Sequence record: NC_054928.1
Source: Escherichia phage vB_vPM_PD112
Strand: one strand, 5' to 3'
DNA: 64,000 nucleotides
In this document: piece after piece, positions 18,048 to 48,491 of the stretch
How positions within the stretch are numbered: position 1 is the stretch's first letter
How the letters are laid out: each line of letters begins with the position of its first letter
The notes under the pieces: generated by a model
What the model was told of the DNA's origin: nothing
The model's input: only the letters and a program-made list of their open reading frames with translations
Databases searched by the model: none
Program-made: the position numbers and the translations under genes

Positions 18048-19857
18048 GTTTTACTCGTTTTACCATTTCTTTCATTTTACCTAAATTCCATGGAACAACG
18101 CTAGGAGTTCCAAGATATCCGCATGTTCTTCTTATGGTGTTCATCTTTTTAGGATCAGTTTCTCCACAAATAGAACAAACAAATCCGTTCTCGGTTGGAG
18201 TCATTTCATGGGTACTTCCACACGTAAAACATTTATCTACTGGCATATTAACGCCAAAATAATCTAAATGTTGTGCAGCATAATCCCATACAGCCTCAAG
18301 GCCTTTTAGGTTATTTTTCATATCAGGAAGTTCAACATAAGAAATGTGACCGCCTGTCGCGATGAAATGATATGGGGCTTCGCGAGAAATCTTTTCAAAT
18401 GGAGTAATATTTTCTTCTACTGAAACGTGGAAACTGTTAGTGTACCAGCCTTTATCAGTAACATCTTTTACACTTCCATATTTTTCGGTATCAAGTTTAC
18501 AGAAGCGATAGCACAGGTTTTCAGCAGGAGTAGAATACAAGCTAAAAGCAAATCCGGTTCTTTCAGTCCACTGCTTAAGATGAGTATTCATTTTAGTTAA
18601 AATTTCTTGTCCAATATCACGACCGACAAGAATATTCAATTCGTGAATACCAATGTATCCTAGGGACACTGAACTTCTACCATTTTTAAATAACTCAATT
18701 ATATCGTCATCAGGTTTAAGACGAACCCCGAATGCACCTTCCTGGTAAAGAATAGGAGCAACAGTAGCTTTAACTCCTTTTAAGGAACTAATTCTACACA
18801 TCAATGCTTCAAAACATAAATCCATTCGTTCATTGAACAATTCGGCAAATTTCTGTTCATTGAACTGTGTTCCAATATAAGAATCTAATGCAATACGAGG
18901 AAGATTCAGTGTTACAACACCAAGATTATTACGTCCATCAAGAATTTCATTACCAGTCGAATCTTTCCATACGCCCAAGAAACTACGGCAACCCATTGGA
19001 GAAACAGGAATAGATGAACCGGTGATAGCTTTATTGTTCTTAGCCGAAATGATGTCAGGATACATTCTTTTGCTTGCGCACTCTAAAGCAAGCTGCTTAA
19101 TATCATAGTTCGGATCGTCTTTATAAAGATTAACACCTTCTTCAACGAACATAACAAGTTTAGGGAAAATAGGAGTTATCCCATCACGACCGAGACCTTT
19201 AATACGATTTTTCAGAATTGCTTTCTGAATCATTCGTTCAGTCCAGTCAGTTCCCGTACCAAATGTAATTGTTACAAAAGGAGTTTGTCCGTTTGAACTA
19301 AAGAGAGTATTTACTTCATATTCATAAGCTTGGAACGCATCGTATACGTCTTTTTCTGTTTTAGATTGGGCATAATTCAACGCATCAGTGATTTGCCATT
19401 TTTCCGCGTCCTCAATATGTTTCGCATAGGTGCGTTTAACATAAGGAGAAAGTACTTTATCTACATTCGCAAAAGTCGTTCCGCCATATTGATGAGAAGC
19501 AACCTGTGCAGTAATTTGTGCCATAATTGCAGTAGCAACGCCAATTGATTTAGGAGTTTCAATCTGTGCATTACCGAGCTTAAATCCGTTCTCAAGCATT
19601 CCTTTTAAATCTACTAAACAGCAATTAGTAAAAGGCAATGATATACTGTAATCTAAATCATGAAAATGAATTAACCCGGCATTATGAGCATTTACAATAT
19701 GGCTTGGAAGAATACTGCAAGCGATATGTTTAGAAACAATACCGGCCATTAAATCTCTTTTTGTTGGAAAGACACGAGAATCTTTGTTGGCGTTTTCGGT
19801 ATTTAATTCTTTATCTTTATTTGAAATAAAATTTAAAACATCTTTCTCTAAAGACAT
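18040..19857 (-). CDS. nrdD: anaerobic ribonucleoside-triphosphate reductase (uninterrupted, no intron)
   Basis: 605 aa contiguous ORF, T4 NrdD length; C-terminal Zn-ribbon CxxC...CxxC and glycyl-radical region. Confidence 0.9.
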   Translation of the reverse strand: MSLEKDVLNFISNKDKELNTENANKDSRVFPTKRDLMAGIVSKHIACSILPSHIVNAHNAGLIHFHDLDYSISLPFTNCCLVDLKGMLENGFKLGNAQIETPKSIGVATAIMAQITAQVASHQYGGTTFANVDKVLSPYVKRTYAKHIEDAEKWQITDALNYAQSKTEKDVYDAFQAYEYEVNTLFSSNGQTPFVTITFGTGTDWTERMIQKAILKNRIKGLGRDGITPIFPKLVMFVEEGVNLYKDDPNYDIKQLALECASKRMYPDIISAKNNKAITGSSIPVSPMGCRSFLGVWKDSTGNEILDGRNNLGVVTLNLPRIALDSYIGTQFNEQKFAELFNERMDLCFEALMCRISSLKGVKATVAPILYQEGAFGVRLKPDDDIIELFKNGRSSVSLGYIGIHELNILVGRDIGQEILTKMNTHLKQWTERTGFAFSLYSTPAENLCYRFCKLDTEKYGSVKDVTDKGWYTNSFHVSVEENITPFEKISREAPYHFIATGGHISYVELPDMKNNLKGLEAVWDYAAQHLDYFGVNMPVDKCFTCGSTHEMTPTENGFVCSICGETDPKKMNTIRRTCGYLGTPSVVPWNLGKMKEMVKRVKHA

Positions 19858-20669
19858 AATTCTAATTTATCCTTTTGAAATTCTTCGTCTAAATATGGGT
19901 TCCAACCCATTTTAAACCTTTTGATGAAATTATCAATTCTAAATTTCGGTAAGTTTAAATCCGCAAAAATAGATGATTTACTTTTAAAATCTGGACCTAA
20001 ATAATCATATAAAATTTCTGCGTATTTTAACCATAATATATAAGTACCAGATTTAATTGCTCTCGGAGTTTTCCAAGGTTTTACACCATACATCGGATTT
20101 CCACTTCCTTTATGCCTGATAGAAGATGAAATTCCAATTTTAATTTTAGCTTCCTCTGTATGCGAAAATCCATGATGTGGATTTTCTTTCCAGTATTTTT
20201 TAGAAGCTTCTGATATTTTCTTTCTGGCTAAATTAGTATGATGCTTTCCATAAAATCCATGATTTTTACCTTTATTACGATTTCTTTTAATCATGGTTAT
20301 TGATTGCTTTTTTCTAGTTTCTTTAGAAGGAGAAACACCGTATGTTGTAAATTGACCATTAGCATATGCTAAATTAAAATACTCTTTATTCCATATATCT
20401 TTTTCTATATTCTTTTGAAATTCAGCTTCAATGCTAGTTATTTGCTCATCTCCGACTAATTGAAAATATAATATTTCAACTTTCGGCGTTTCTTTCAACA
20501 GGGCTTTTTGAAATTCGGAAGATGACGAAGACGAATAATAAAATTTACCATTTTTATCAATAATATTCGTTCCGTCAAAAGTGCAATTGGTTTTACTTCC
20601 AATATAATAATACGGCGGGGTTTTAGCATTAATTCTACTAATAAATGATAGTTTATATACTACATTCAT
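19848..20669 (-). CDS. free-standing GIY-YIG homing endonuclease with NUMOD3-like DNA-binding repeats
   Basis: N-terminal VVYKL...YYYIGSKTN; repeats GKHHTNLARKKISEASK and GFSHTEEAKIKIGIS; wedged between 49 and nrdD with coupled overlaps. Confidence 0.65.
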   Translation of the reverse strand: MNVVYKLSFISRINAKTPPYYYIGSKTNCTFDGTNIIDKNGKFYYSSSSSSEFQKALLKETPKVEILYFQLVGDEQITSIEAEFQKNIEKDIWNKEYFNLAYANGQFTTYGVSPSKETRKKQSITMIKRNRNKGKNHGFYGKHHTNLARKKISEASKKYWKENPHHGFSHTEEAKIKIGISSSIRHKGSGNPMYGVKPWKTPRAIKSGTYILWLKYAEILYDYLGPDFKSKSSIFADLNLPKFRIDNFIKRFKMGWNPYLDEEFQKDKLELCL

Positions 20670-21139
20670 TTTAAACTCTTTCTAAGCTGCTTCTTAAATG
20701 AAGCTATTAATTGTGTTTTGGTGTCAGATTCATTATATTCAAATCCTCTTTGAAGCATCTCAGCCATCATTTCCTCTTTTCCTAAACGAGAAAATTCCTT
20801 TGATTTATCTCCAACGAAGTTAGGGTGAATATTATTTTGGGTGTAATCGGATTTTAAATAAGTAAGTAAATTTTCTAACCATTCAAGATAATCAACGCCT
20901 TGTCCCTTTAAGCCAGAACGATTAAATTTGTGTTTCATTTGACCTTCTGCAGCATTACACAGATTACAAAGCAATCCACGTACCTTTCCAGCTTTCGGTC
21001 CATTTAATTCATGGTCATGGTCAAGGTGATTAGCTTGAACATCAGGATTTAGTTCTCGTTGGCAAATTAAGCATTTACCGTTTTGTGCATTATAAAATTT
21101 TTGTTTTTCTTCTTTGTATAATTTGCCAGTCAATAACAT
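20666..21139 (-). CDS. 49: endonuclease VII (Holliday junction resolvase)
   Basis: 157 aa; matches T4 gp49 (CLICQRELNP...HDHELNG). Confidence 0.9.
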   Translation of the reverse strand: MLLTGKLYKEEKQKFYNAQNGKCLICQRELNPDVQANHLDHDHELNGPKAGKVRGLLCNLCNAAEGQMKHKFNRSGLKGQGVDYLEWLENLLTYLKSDYTQNNIHPNFVGDKSKEFSRLGKEEMMAEMLQRGFEYNESDTKTQLIASFKKQLRKSLK

Positions 21140-37151: not shown

Positions 37152-37175
37152 GTTATTCTCCTCTTAACTGATAGA

Positions 37176-37208
37176 AAAATTATACCACAGTCAAGAGGAA
37201 AAGTAAAC
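37176..37208 (-). promoter_or_regulatory. T4-type early promoter upstream of regB
   Basis: Minus-strand read GTTTACttttcctcttgactgtgGTATAATTTT. Confidence 0.6.
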
Positions 37209-37210
37209 AG

Positions 37211-37531
37211 TTATTCTTTAAATCTAATCAATTTATTCATAGACTTTGAAACTTCTGCACGAACCTCATGTAGATTTTTGAGCTGTTCAAGACGCTGCTC
37301 ATAGTAAGCAATTTCATCTTCTTCGAGACAGTCCTGTGAATCTTCTTTAAGATAACGTGCATAGTCCTGGAAAGCGTTACGGACTACTTCCTGGAAGTCA
37401 TCAAGACTTTGAATTTTCTTAGGAGCAACAGATACACGACGAGGGGCAGTATAATACTCATAACCAAACCCTGCACTTAATTGAGCCATTAATATTTTTC
37501 CTCTGGTTGGAACACAGCACGACAAGCCCAC
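37211..37531 (-). CDS. hypothetical protein (vs.3 position); start probably internal
   Basis: 106 aa ORF. Confidence 0.4.
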
Positions 37532-37755
37532 ATACTGGCTTCTTTGAGTTTCGTTTTAGCAATAGTTAACTGATCAAGACTTTCAGCATAATTCTTCGCG
37601 AATTCACAGTCTTCACAATTATCTAACGCTTCCCAAAATTCATCATATAAAGCATCAAAGATAAGTCCTAAACGAACTTCAGCGTCTTTGATAGCATTCG
37701 CTTTACTGATTTTATCGTCAGTATGTGGCTTATAACCTTTAATGTCTTCAATCAT
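37489..37755 (-). CDS. hypothetical small helical protein at the vs.4 position; possible Acb2-type anti-CBASS sponge by synteny only
   Basis: 88 aa; sixth-to-first ORF count after regB matches T4 vs.3-vs.8. Confidence 0.35.
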
Positions 37756-37969
37756 ATTTTACTTCCTCACCTGTTCCCAAATCATATTCAACTAAACGAA
37801 TAGGTTCATGAATTCCATATCCTTGAACAGAAATTTCTGTCGTAGGATAAATTCCATCAATATCGCCCATATTCCACGCTTCATTAAATTGCTGTTCGCC
37901 TGAATTACTAAACCACTCGGCGAAAGCATTTAGCACATCTTCAGAACCTTCAATAATTATCTTTGCCAT
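37748..37969 (-). CDS. hypothetical protein (vs.5 position)
   Basis: 73 aa ORF. Confidence 0.4.
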   Translation of the reverse strand: MAKIIIEGSEDVLNAFAEWFSNSGEQQFNEAWNMGDIDGIYPTTEISVQGYGIHEPIRLVEYDLGTGEEVKYD

Positions 37970-38331
37970 TACAAACTCTCAGTAAAGGTACGAGCAATAA
38001 CGTCGCGTTGCTGTTCCGGAGTCAGAGAGTTAAAGCGAACTGCGTATCCGGATACACGGATGGTCAGCTGCGGATATTTTTCCGGATGCTTAACTGCATC
38101 TTCCAGAGTTTCACGACGCAGAACGTTTACGTTCAGGTGTTGACCACCCTCAATTTTAACTGTAGGCTGTGTTTCAATTTCAATTTCACGGGCATGCAAA
38201 CCATAGAAAATTTCTGGGTCTACAAAAGAGTCCTCTTTAAAGGTTTTAGAGACAATAATTCGTGCTTGAATACCATCTTCAAAATAAATAGTACCTTTAT
38301 GTGTGCCTTCAAGAATTTGATATGCTTTCAT
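37969..38331 (-). CDS. hypothetical protein (vs.6 position)
   Basis: 120 aa ORF. Confidence 0.45.
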
Positions 38332-38338
38332 ATAAACC

Positions 38339-38719
38339 TCAATTAGAAAATAAATTTATCCAAGATTGTTCTTTAATTAAAAATGGCTCAGAATCATATG
38401 CCATTAAACTCTGTGTGATTAGTCCTTTAAAAGGCCCATCAATAAATTCCATGGTAAAGTATGGAATTTTATTCATTAATCTCGCATTAGGAGCAGTACA
38501 TAAAACTCTGCATCCTTTGAATACGCCTTTTTGCAATTTGTATTGCTTAGGATAAAATTCGCTTAAAATGTTATTTTTTGCCAAAATTTCAAAATGATTC
38601 ACCAATTTATTTTTAATAGTTTTTGGTGAAAAATAAAGATATTCGAAAAGCTGAGTGTCTGTCATCATTGCATTCCGATTACGAAAAACTGTGGACGAGT
38701 AATACCACCAATGCAGCAT
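38339..38719 (-). CDS. hypothetical protein (vs.7 position); start probably internal
   Basis: 126 aa ORF. Confidence 0.4.
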
Positions 38720-39255
38720 TTACTATTGCAGCAGTGTTGCACAGTTTCAATATGAATATCGTAAATTTTATCCATATCAGGAGATTTAACAGGCTCATCG
38801 ATTATATACAAAATTCGAGAAAGCGATAAACCTCTGAACTTGCTACCTCTATTACCAACAAAACTACGGACAGAATCAGTAAATAAACGGAATCGAATAT
38901 CATCGCTAGAATAACGAGAAAATTCTTTTTTAATGCGGCCCGCAGAAATTTTAGCGTAAGCTGAAGTATTAGAAAGAACAATAACTGTTCCACCATCATA
39001 CAACCAATTAGCGGCAAAATTAGTTACTGCAGTTGATTTACCAGATTGTCTGCCACCATCTAAACGAAGTGTACAATATTCTTTAAATAAATGCGACGAA
39101 TCAGGTACATAAAATCCACTATTACAAATTTCTTCTACTCTAGCATCAGAATGGTGTGTAAAAGCATTCATCAGGGATAGATAAGGACCAGTTAAAAATG
39201 TTCTCATTTTATTCTCTCTAAATTTGGGCCATTCCATGGCGCATGAATTGTCCAT
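38665..39255 (-). CDS. P-loop NTPase (vs.8 position)
   Basis: Walker A GGRQSGKST, Walker B ILYIIDEP. Confidence 0.5.
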   Translation of the reverse strand: MDNSCAMEWPKFRENKMRTFLTGPYLSLMNAFTHHSDARVEEICNSGFYVPDSSHLFKEYCTLRLDGGRQSGKSTAVTNFAANWLYDGGTVIVLSNTSAYAKISAGRIKKEFSRYSSDDIRFRLFTDSVRSFVGNRGSKFRGLSLSRILYIIDEPVKSPDMDKIYDIHIETVQHCCNSKCCIGGITRPQFFVIGMQ

Positions 39256-39348
39256 TTCTGTATTTACCCATTACCGCACTTGGGCTCGACCTTATTACAG
39301 GTTGGCGGGAATCCCTCACAGAATCATGAGGTCCAGGTTGTTCCCATG

Positions 39349-39822
39349 TTATTTGAACGATTTAACGTACTGAATAGAACCTTTACTATTCACGAAAGCG
39401 ATTTTACCATTTTTATTATACATGGTAGCAGTACGCTGATAACCATAAGTTTGTTTACCAGATTGATAACCAACTAATGCGAAATTATCTTCACCCATTT
39501 TATTCTGTTTAGCGCGAATACGTTCATGTCCATGCGCCATAAGAACCTTAGCATCACCAGTTGCAATGGATCGACGAGTTTTTTCATCTTCAACTGTATT
39601 AACAAAATCATCAAATGAATCAAATTTAGCATGAGATTTATTATACAGTTTTCCATCTACTGCATAATTATATCCCTGTACATCCATCTCAACTTCTGTG
39701 CCATCATCTAATACAGCAGTAATTTTCTGTCCTTTTTTAAATTTCAAAAGATCAGTAAAAGATTCAGCAATAATTTGAGAATTAATAGCTGCTTCAGTAA
39801 TAAATTCTTGATATGTTTTCAT
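39349..39822 (-). CDS. capsid internal protein (IP) with N-terminal capsid-targeting sequence
   Basis: N-terminus MKTYQEFITEAA is the T-even IP targeting leader; early promoter upstream; 157 aa. Confidence 0.7.
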   Translation of the reverse strand: MKTYQEFITEAAINSQIIAESFTDLLKFKKGQKITAVLDDGTEVEMDVQGYNYAVDGKLYNKSHAKFDSFDDFVNTVEDEKTRRSIATGDAKVLMAHGHERIRAKQNKMGEDNFALVGYQSGKQTYGYQRTATMYNKNGKIAFVNSKGSIQYVKSFK

Positions 39823-39862
39823 ATGTTTCCTTTAAATGTAAATATTTTAATTAGTAACTGTG

Positions 39863-39895
39863 AATATACTATCACAGTTCTAGGAGAAAGTAAAC
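39863..39895 (-). promoter_or_regulatory. T4-type early promoter
   Basis: Minus-strand read GTTTACtttctcctagaactgtgaTAGTATATTC. Confidence 0.55.
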
Positions 39896-39899
39896 AACT

Positions 39900-40430
<531 letters not shown>

Positions 40431-40886
40431 TTAAAAGAGGTTGTTCATTATTCGGTAAAGTGAAGGACCCATCACATATTGCCACTGAGTACGAGGAATA
40501 AGAGCAAAAGCGTCCATCTCTGGAATCATAACGCCATCTTTATTTTCAAAATAAGACTCGCAATGGCAATTTCTAAACATCTCATGCTCTACTGGAATCG
40601 TATAATAAAATAACTGTAAGTCTTTATTACTAGAATATTTAAATACACCTAGGTCTTCTAGAAGGTCTGGATTATAATTGCTAAAACCAGTCTCTTCTAA
40701 ACATTCTCTTCGTGCTGCATCTAGTACGCTTAAATCAGAATTTTCTACGCGGCCCTTTGGGATATCCCAGCGATGTGCCATCATTCCAGGCTTACGAGAA
40801 CCAGTAACCCGTCCCATGAATAAATCTTTATCTTCGGTCATAAAGATAATACCAGCTGATAGTGTTTTCATTTTAATTTCCTGCAT
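40431..40886 (-). CDS. nudE: Nudix hydrolase
   Basis: 151 aa; Nudix box GRVENSDLSVLDAARRECLEETG. Confidence 0.85.
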   Translation of the reverse strand: MQEIKMKTLSAGIIFMTEDKDLFMGRVTGSRKPGMMAHRWDIPKGRVENSDLSVLDAARRECLEETGFSNYNPDLLEDLGVFKYSSNKDLQLFYYTIPVEHEMFRNCHCESYFENKDGVMIPEMDAFALIPRTQWQYVMGPSLYRIMNNLF

Positions 40887-48233: not shown

Positions 48234-48491
48234 TTATTTTAAATCTTCTAATCGTTTCTTCATCTTAGAACCGTTCTTAGCGATTTCGCCTGCATCAGAG
48301 CATAATGCTAAAAGCGCTTTAACTTTAGTTTGGTCTCCTTTAAAAGATGAAGGATCGACTGCAGCAGCAAGTTCTTTAATACGAGAGAAAAGACGCTCAG
48401 CTTCAGCTAAAGCCATTCCAAGCTTTACTTCCATACCATGAGAAGATTCAGTAATAGTAGTTTTTGTAGCAAACTCTTTGAAAGTTTTCAT
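48234..48491 (-). CDS. internal protein at the ipI locus (leader MKTFKEF)
   Basis: 85 aa; IP-type leader; position immediately before 57B as for T4 ipI. Confidence 0.6.
   Translation of the reverse strand: MKTFKEFATKTTITESSHGMEVKLGMALAEAERLFSRIKELAAAVDPSSFKGDQTKVKALLALCSDAGEIAKNGSKMKKRLEDLK

Follow-up and report, generated by a model that had tools for sequence, protein, structure and literature searches.

A T2/K3-like arrangement of the internal protein locus in Escherichia phage vB_vPM_PD112, bordered by a conserved block that may be an RNA

Gene order at the locus and the internal protein gene

We analysed a stretch of 64,000 nt from Escherichia phage vB_vPM_PD112 (NC_054928.1), here called the window, at the locus between the lysozyme gene e and the vs genes. 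According to the ORF list, every gene from 36 to 43 kb of the window is on the minus strand, and the order in the direction of transcription is nudE, e, a 157-aa internal protein (IP) ORF (ip4), vs.8, vs.7, vs.6, vs.5, vs.4, vs.3, regB, vs.1 and vs. The genes were assigned using a Pfam scan and tblastn with T4 proteins, and the features of the locus are listed in Table 1. In the tblastn search, the products of e, nudE, regB and vs.3-vs.8 were 82-100% identical to their T4 counterparts. The closest record at the locus is Escherichia phage vB_EcoM_IME537, a Tequatrovirus (99.9% identity), and across its full length the window is mosaic, with 94-99.7% identity to the IME537 genome.

Table 1. Positions of genes and sequence features at the IP locus, in the direction of transcription.
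Feature	Position in window	Strand	Description	Evidence
nudE	40431-40886	minus		tblastn with T4 proteins
e	39900-40394	minus	T4 lysozyme, 164 aa; conserved upstream anchor of the variable slot	97% identity to T4 e
PeSL-like element	39853-39895	minus	putative early promoter/stem-loop of the IP locus	alignment, inverted-repeat search
IP 5′ leader	39793-39852	minus	conserved; ribosome-binding region and 10 capsid-targeting (CTS) codons (MKTYQEFITE)	alignment
ip4 (ipIV)	39349-39822	minus	157-aa internal head protein precursor, DUF7412 family	Pfam, phrog_3155
Conserved block	39208-39345 (core domain 39261-39311)	minus	non-coding; candidate structured RNA	alignments, covariation
vs.8	38665-39207	minus	180-aa orthologue, P-loop NTPase-like	82% identity to T4 Vs.8
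vs.7	38339-38668	minus	109-aa orthologue; conserved downstream flank	100% identity to T4 Vs.7
vs.6		minus	glycyl-radical GrcA-like ORF	
vs.4		minus	Acb2/Tad1 hairpin domain	

The order in T4, read from NC_000866, is e-ipIII-ipII-denV-vs.8-vs.7-vs.6, which bears out the starting point of an earlier note on this DNA, namely that T4 carries denV, ipII and ipIII between the vs block and e. Relative to T4, only the segment from about 39320 to 39852 is replaced: T4 has three cassettes (about 1.6 kb), whereas the window has a single, unrelated IP body of ~0.5 kb. The flanks formed by e, vs.8, vs.7 and vs.6 are shared at 82-100% amino acid identity, and the PeSL-like element, the IP leader and the conserved block before vs.8 are all common to T4 and the window.

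The 157-aa product begins MKTYQEFITEAA. It matches Pfam family PF24183 (DUF7412) over residues 1-157 (E=5.7e-96, 319 bits with a cut-off of 27) and phrog_3155, ‘internal virion protein’ (E=6e-102). It is 99% identical to UniProt Q38388, ‘Ip4 [Enterobacteria phage K3]’, with a TM score of 0.96, and identical at 157/157 residues to its positional counterpart in T2 (AP018813), where it is mislabelled ‘valyl tRNA synthetase modifier’. The annotations of SA20RB, GiZh and PST likewise use the name Ip4 or ipIV, and the protein has been named since the 1990s. The family is very small: clustering at 90% identity leaves 14 clusters and at 50% 7 representatives. A profile search of 1.84 billion representative proteins found only 7. 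Those that bear a name are either proteins of T4-like phages or a lone Shigella record, and the other clusters consist mostly of metagenomic sequences without names.

Ip4 has the hallmarks of the T4-type internal proteins. Its gene is directly downstream of e, and IP genes are restricted to two loci, beside e or beside 57B (PMC2839356). The leader MKTYQEFITE differs from that of IPII and IPIII (MKTYQEFIAE) at residue 9 only and retains the CTS residues Y4, F7, I8 and E10; in IPIII, CTS residues 4 and 7 serve targeting and residues 8 and 10 processing (PMC9026906). The protein is also small and basic, with a precursor of 17.8 kDa (pI 8.9) and a predicted mature form of 15.5-16.5 kDa (pI 9.1-9.3). 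Only two [LI]xE motifs are present, at residues 8-10 and 18-20, and both glutamates, E10 and E20, hardly vary even among homologues of 34-36% identity. In an AlphaFold model that included the remote homologues (pLDDT 84 overall), residues 1-20 are disordered and the prediction is confident from residue 21 onward. The predicted fold contains a small beta-barrel, and structure comparison returned no informative neighbour.

By analogy with the T4 proteins, Ip4 would be made as a precursor whose first 10 residues direct it to the prohead core, where the gp21 protease would cut behind Glu10 to release the leader and probably cut again behind Glu20. Removal of such a 20-residue propeptide in two steps would yield a basic mature protein of ~15.5 kDa (pI 9.3), to be packed with the DNA and then injected. 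Packaging and injection together with the DNA have been described for IPs (PMC9026906). IPI inhibits the GmrSD restriction enzyme, and plating of T4 on ECOR17 requires IPIII, which, if produced inside the host, works even without its CTS (PMC9391042). On the model of these two proteins, Ip4 is probably an alternative injected effector that neutralises a host defence. The set of injected proteins is thus predicted to differ from that of T4, which would be useful for host-range prediction and for annotation in phage therapy.

vs.8 and the conserved block upstream of it

The P-loop NTPase described in the earlier note is present as an ORF with Walker motifs, but it was wrongly counted with the remodelled genes: it is the orthologue of T4 vs.8 (phrog_1488, E=5e-78) and, being present in T4 too, therefore lies outside the remodelled part. 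In the 180-aa form of Vs.8, Walker A (GGRQSGKS) begins at residue 51 and Walker B (LYIIDE) is at residue 133. The protein also matches the terminase ATPase phrog_2 weakly, and it has no match below E=0.1 among PDB sequences. Family membership and the Walker motifs identify Vs.8 as NTPase-like. The ORF as listed spans 38665-39255 (196 aa). The true start, however, is most likely the ATG at 39207 (MRTFLTG, 180 aa), judging by the annotation of SA20RB and MLF4. Both the 196-aa reading from 39255 and the 219-aa annotation of T4 run into the conserved non-coding block.

This block fills the 141-nt gap between ip4 and the likely start of vs.8, which has about 50% G+C compared with roughly 35% for the genome. 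In alignments it is better conserved than the flanking genes. It contains an invariant core of 31 nt, CCUGUAAnAAGGnCnAGCCnAAGUGCGGUAA, in which variation is tolerated at four positions; T4 itself has one additional T-to-C change. Blastn detected the block in 1117 phage records, and its range comprises T-even phages, Jiaodavirus, Gelderlandvirus, Vequintavirus and some phage contigs of ~45-70 kb. In other Tevenvirinae (Mineola, CF-SP2) it is located in an unannotated gap upstream of the vs.8 homologue, in Vequintavirus nimi it is beside a tRNA cluster, and it is also found in the 45-kb phage Ivi. In phage L025 the RNA-like element and vs.8 are separated by an inserted IP gene. A pattern scan recovered the core from 26 IMG/VR contigs and from none of 185,579 bacterial and archaeal genomes. 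Using a covariance model of the core we found one copy in the window, one in the whole of IME537, none in the T6 locus and two tandem copies in one IMG/VR contig.

For the covariation analysis, 18 distinct core domains were aligned without gaps, with the invariant core as the only anchor. The outer 5-bp helix P1 (GGGAA/UUCCC in the window) is fully complementary in 17 of the 18 sequence types, where 4.25 would be expected, and about 11 different sequences of this helix were counted. In the 3-bp helix closing the core (39266-39268/39304-39306 in the window), each of the three pairs has undergone compensatory change (CG/GC/UA/AU). Here 96.8% of the cells are paired, compared with 78% in shuffles and 21-52% in slid controls, and the covariation score of 0.44 (0.12 in shuffles) was reached by 0/500 shuffles. 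The inner hairpin varies by lineage in both sequence and loop length (CCUCA/UGAGG, CACAU/AUGUG, CUACG/CGUAG). The G-U pairs fit only the strand in sense orientation relative to vs.8.

Folding of single sequences was no better than that of shuffles (z from +0.6 to -0.6), and thermodynamics alone therefore gives no support for a structure. We also noticed by eye a pseudoknot between J1 and the 3′ tail; it was unsupported by a longest-helix shuffle test and is treated as hypothetical. A cmscan of 38900-40000 with Rfam 15 (E<=10) yielded no match overlapping 39208-39345, and elsewhere in the interval there were only chance matches of snoRNA/miRNA type with E>1. A literal search for the core sequence found it in no paper of the literature collection covered.

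Positions 39208-39348 could alternatively be protein-coding, either as an N-terminal extension of vs.8 or as a separate 33-aa ORF (39218-39319), rather than an RNA or DNA element. The annotated 219-aa vs.8 of T4 does start inside the block, and in the window a GTG-initiated ORF of 33 aa spans it. However, in both the window and SA20RB the block is cut off from vs.8 by a TAG in frame, the distance to the ATG of vs.8 varies by a number of nucleotides not divisible by three, and relatives annotate vs.8 from MRTFLTG. Moreover, the 31-nt core stays constant while the Vs.8 proteins fall to 37-45% identity, and it recurs in unannotated gaps of unrelated phages, where the gene downstream is unrelated to vs.8 or no ORF follows. 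On either side of the core, as described above, base pairs are swapped in a compensatory manner. We consider a coding function unlikely. The block is the sole unexpected feature at the locus and may plausibly be a new phage RNA. That it is an undescribed, phage-specific structured RNA, acting as a cis-regulatory leader or as a small stable RNA, is a tentative proposal to which we give slightly less than even odds. If it is right, the start of T4 vs.8 would have to be revised, as the present annotation would be wrong by about 40 codons.

Absence of denV, ipII and ipIII

The earlier note had reported a single 157-aa IP gene, no ipII and no endonuclease V-like ORF. A tblastn search of the 64-kb window with T4 DenV gave a best match of E=1.1-1.5, and the Pyr_excise Pfam domain had no match among 10 neighbouring ORFs. 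The similarity to T4 IPIII was limited to residues 1-13 of the 157-aa protein, and that to T4 IPII was 33% over 79 aa (E=1.7e-4) in an alignment carried by the shared leader. The observation is thus correct, because there is no DenV match and IPII and IPIII match via the shared leader only.

It would be overturned by a denV homologue elsewhere, and a functional endonuclease V gene could indeed have moved, inside or outside the window, rather than been lost. Relatives carry denV at either of two sites in the slot: T4 has it ahead of vs.8, and sb3 and MLF4 have it between e and ip4. It is therefore mobile as a cassette. The complete IME537 genome contains two candidates for a relocated gene. One is its vs.3 homologue, which bears the RefSeq label ‘putative pyrimidine dimer DNA glycosylase’. 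This label is an annotation error, since the protein shares 99% identity with T4 Vs.3 and lacks a glycosylase domain (no Pyr_excise Pfam match). The other is the sole, weak DenV match in tblastn (49 aa, E=5e-4). It is inside gene 49 and part of endonuclease VII, and T4 carries gene 49 alongside denV. Both candidates were rejected, the second as a denV paralogue. No further match was found in the complete IME537 genome, from which ipII and ipIII were also absent by tblastn, and the window held no DenV match at E<1. Together with the confinement of IP-type cassettes to the two IP loci (PMC2839356), this result for the 64-kb window and IME537 makes relocation of denV very improbable. The mislabelled vs.3 of IME537 and Ip4 of T2 can mislead text searches for denV.

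DenV was found in 1119 phage records overall, and its absence here is therefore an allele state and not a lineage-wide trait. As the ipIII, ipII and denV cassettes are absent, the phage is most likely without pyrimidine-dimer glycosylase repair, like T2. The classical difference in UV sensitivity between T2 and T4 was mapped to the u/v gene. By analogy, loss of denV would make the phage as UV-sensitive as T2. A literature search on denV in T2 and on ‘vs.8’ returned nothing useful.

Alleles of the locus and putative sites of exchange

We searched for variants of the locus with a probe that ran from the 3′ end of e across the spacer into the 5′ end of ip4. Both parts of the probe were close together in 262 records, and the arrangements were counted in a spread sample of 28 of these. 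The most frequent was e-denV-ip4 (12/28; sb3, MLF4, GiZh), followed by the direct e-ip4 junction (10/28; T2, RB3, RB27, HY03, CE1 and others), e-IPx-ip4 with about 1.1 kb extra (4/28; Shfl2, ECML-134, PST (e-ipIII-ipIV)) and e-IPy-ip4 with about 0.3 kb extra (2/28; EC121, ADUt). The e-ip4-vs.8 order is thus found in about a third of the sampled Tequatrovirus records that carry Ip4. T4 and its close kin have e-ipIII-ipII-denV, and in T6 e is joined straight to regB. PST and T4 differ in five IPs (Comeau et al., 2014; PMC4122927).

The T2/K3 locus has the same gene order and flanks as the window. T2 (AP018813) shows the order e-ip4-vs.8 and no DenV match within a 16-kb stretch (56000-72000), in agreement with the assignment of the arrangement to the T2 type in the earlier note. 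The two differ in that the flanking DNA is about 93% identical over 2.1 kb, and in that vs.8 is intact in the window and split over three frames in AP018813. In the e-denV-ip4-vs.8 allele (Shigella phage sb3, MLF4, GiZh, KNP5), ip4 and its flanks are 93-97% identical to the window at the DNA level, but a 138-aa denV is present, about 78% identical to T4 DenV in this phage class.

Taken together, we conclude, with a probability of about 0.88, that the interval represents the T2/K3 allele of the hypervariable IP locus already known between e and the vs block of T-even phages. This places the phage in the T2/K3 class at the IP locus, with T2-like UV sensitivity as a prediction. That the arrangement instead goes back to a recent deletion in a single isolate, made in the laboratory or during assembly, is scarcely credible: experimental evolution of T4 readily removes non-essential genes here, with ipIII lost in three populations (PMC9391042), but the same junction occurs in independent isolates from several countries and in T2, RB3, RB27 and K3, and the slot holds a different IP gene, ip4, and not a mere gap. 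The hyperplasticity invoked in the earlier note is likewise documented, as the locus is a known variable one and more than 30 IP variants are known (Comeau et al., 2007, as cited in PMC2839356). Our finding for this phage is in this sense correct but already known, the plasticity of the IP locus having been described in 1994 and reviewed since.

The putative PeSL-like element after e consists of a GTTTAC box at 39890-39895 and a perfect 8-bp inverted repeat, AACTGTGA/TCACAGTT (39856-39863 and 39872-39879), with a loop of 8 nt. It follows e in every variant aligned and is also found upstream of ipIII, ipII and denV in T4 and upstream of denV in sb3 and MLF4; a second copy precedes regB in the window, at about 37160-37208. 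In SA20RB it is annotated as a terminator and a T4 early promoter. A terminator scan found no canonical intrinsic terminator within 38300-40500. PeSL-like sequences have been reported at two highly variable T-even IP loci (Repoila et al., 1994, as cited in PMC2839356). Such T-even elements are regarded as PeSL analogues that may underlie the plasticity of the locus (Arbiol et al., 2010; PMC2839356). With its T4 early-promoter box and adjacent AT-rich stem-loop flanking a cassette, the element in the window appears to be such an analogue. As in the PeSLs of RB49 and phi1, an early promoter together with a stem-loop flanks non-essential cassettes and would provide short homology for insertion, deletion or replacement. 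The RB49/phi1 PeSLs are analogues and not homologues of the T-even elements, which follow the T4 early-promoter consensus and whose AT-rich stems lack polyG/polyC (PMC2839356).

The IP leader is nearly identical in nucleotide sequence to the starts of T4 ipIII and ipII. Each IP gene has the same ribosome-binding stretch upstream and the same first 30 nt of leader codons, and by this comparison the ~60-nt leader is a putative homology patch common to different IP genes. In the e-denV-ip4 allele, denV lies between the promoter/stem-loop and this leader, and the last denV codons overlap the leader motif. On the downstream side, T4 and the window become similar again at GGGAAC, 2-4 nt past the stop of denV (T4) or ip4 (window). 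Judging from the alignments, the conserved block is the likely fixed downstream anchor, or breakpoint, of the IP/denV cassette slot, and the presence of this RNA-like element before vs.8 would explain why the downstream breakpoint is so sharply fixed.

We propose that cassettes enter, leave or replace one another in the slot through homologous recombination carried out by the phage itself, at short patches of conserved sequence. The first patch would be the early-promoter/stem-loop element, repeated after e and before each cassette, the second the ~60-nt leader with its ribosome-binding site and capsid-targeting codons, present in all IP genes, and the third the conserved block immediately upstream of vs.8. 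Placed in this way, the putative breakpoints match the published model of shuffling at the IP locus. The event itself could be a loss of denV and the other IPs or a replacement by recombination with another phage.

The comparison with the IP loci of T2 and T6 that the earlier note had suggested gave the same allele in T2 and a more extensive change in T6. The T6 locus would belong to the same class of events, with recombination between repeated GTTTAC early-promoter elements. T6 is without IPs, denV, the whole vs.3-vs.8 block and the RNA-like element, whereas ip4 and the vs genes are retained in the window. The T6 e-regB spacer combines the left half of the element that follows e with the right half of the one preceding regB. 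The two meet within the GTTTACTTT that both elements share, and this junction is, to judge from its sequence, a clean example of promoter-element recombination.

A conserved block between ip4 and vs.8

The intergenic region between ip4 and vs.8 contains a conserved block that we regard as a candidate new structured phage RNA. Its G+C content is about 50%, and a core of 31 nt is invariant in T-even, Jiaodavirus, Gelderlandvirus and Vequintavirus phages and in some contigs of ∼45–70 kb. Covariation is seen in the helices on either side of this core. The block occurs once in the window and once in the complete genome of Escherichia phage IME537, which is 99.9% identical to the window at the e-ip4-vs.8 locus. 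Rfam gave no match for the block, bacterial genomes gave zero matches to it, and a literature search for its core sequence found no paper. The coordinates of this and the other features are collected in the table.

Features in the window and in compared genomes
Feature	Window	Strand	Other genome	Remarks
Conserved block, ip4/vs.8	39208-39345	minus		core 39261-39311
vs.3	37211-37531		IME537 139496-139816	
vs.4	37489-37755			Acb2/Tad1-hairpin protein (cyclic-nucleotide sponge family, PF24729)
vs.6	37969-38331			autonomous glycyl-radical cofactor
DenV-like stretch of gene 49	about 20681-20827		IME537 121261-121407	endonuclease VII C-terminus
273-aa ORF	19848-20669	minus		between anaerobic ribonucleotide reductase gene and gene 49
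e/regB junction of T6	37160-37208 and 39853-39895 (compared)		L041 (T6, NC_054907) 2540-2640	
85-aa IP gene	48234-48491	minus		second IP locus, adjoining 57B; MKTFKEFATK..., phrog_3499

In contig L040 (9019-9181) the RNA-like element is present as two tandem copies, the second of which has diverged (34 bits). In the Jiaodavirus-like contig L025 (10253-10453 and downstream) a 100-aa IP gene (MKTYKEFITEA...) lies between the element and vs.8.

Annotation of vs.8 and DenV-like matches

When T4 (NC_000866, 64800-64912) is aligned with the window (39208-39319), the annotated T4 vs.8 (219 aa) is found to begin within the conserved block. The T4-type frame is broken by an in-frame TAG and a spacer of other length both in the window and in its relative SA20RB, and in relatives vs.8 starts at MRTFLTG (180 aa). 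Judged from these alignments, the T4 start is probably placed ∼40 codons too far upstream. In the T2 record AP018813 (5757-6400 of our extract, L010) vs.8 aligns to T4 Vs.8 as three pieces in differing frames and the annotation covers a 174-bp fragment only, reflecting either a pseudogene or sequencing errors. Ip4 in the same record is mislabelled “valyl tRNA synthetase modifier.”

The IME537 homolog of vs.3 is labelled “putative pyrimidine dimer DNA glycosylase” in RefSeq. This is an annotation error, because the product is 99% identical to T4 Vs.3 and neither DenV similarity nor a Pyr_excise domain was found in it. Such a label could hide the lack of denV. DenV residues 56–101 align to a 49-residue stretch of gene 49, with 43% identity and E = 5e-4 in the search against IME537. 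The copy in the window has one residue changed and does not reach the reporting level. This stretch, part of the endonuclease VII C-terminus, is not a denV paralog; the resemblance may be due to chance or a common helical motif. The 273-aa ORF next to gene 49 is probably a mobile endonuclease insertion; IME537 differs from the window here, having a homing endonuclease at another position.

Variation at the IP loci

With vs.4 and vs.6 among its neighbours, the variable IP slot thus lies in a block that has many counter-defence and accessory genes. In T6, regB directly follows e, with the crossover within the GTTTACTTT box that the promoter element after e has in common with the one preceding regB. 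As a result, T6 has no IPs, no denV and nothing of the vs.3–vs.8 region, which includes the Acb2 homolog vs.4 and GrcA.

At the 57B locus, the window holds a single IP gene (product pI 9.3) whereas IME537 has two, and the window is ∼280 bp shorter there. Both IP loci of the window phage are thus in a minimal state.
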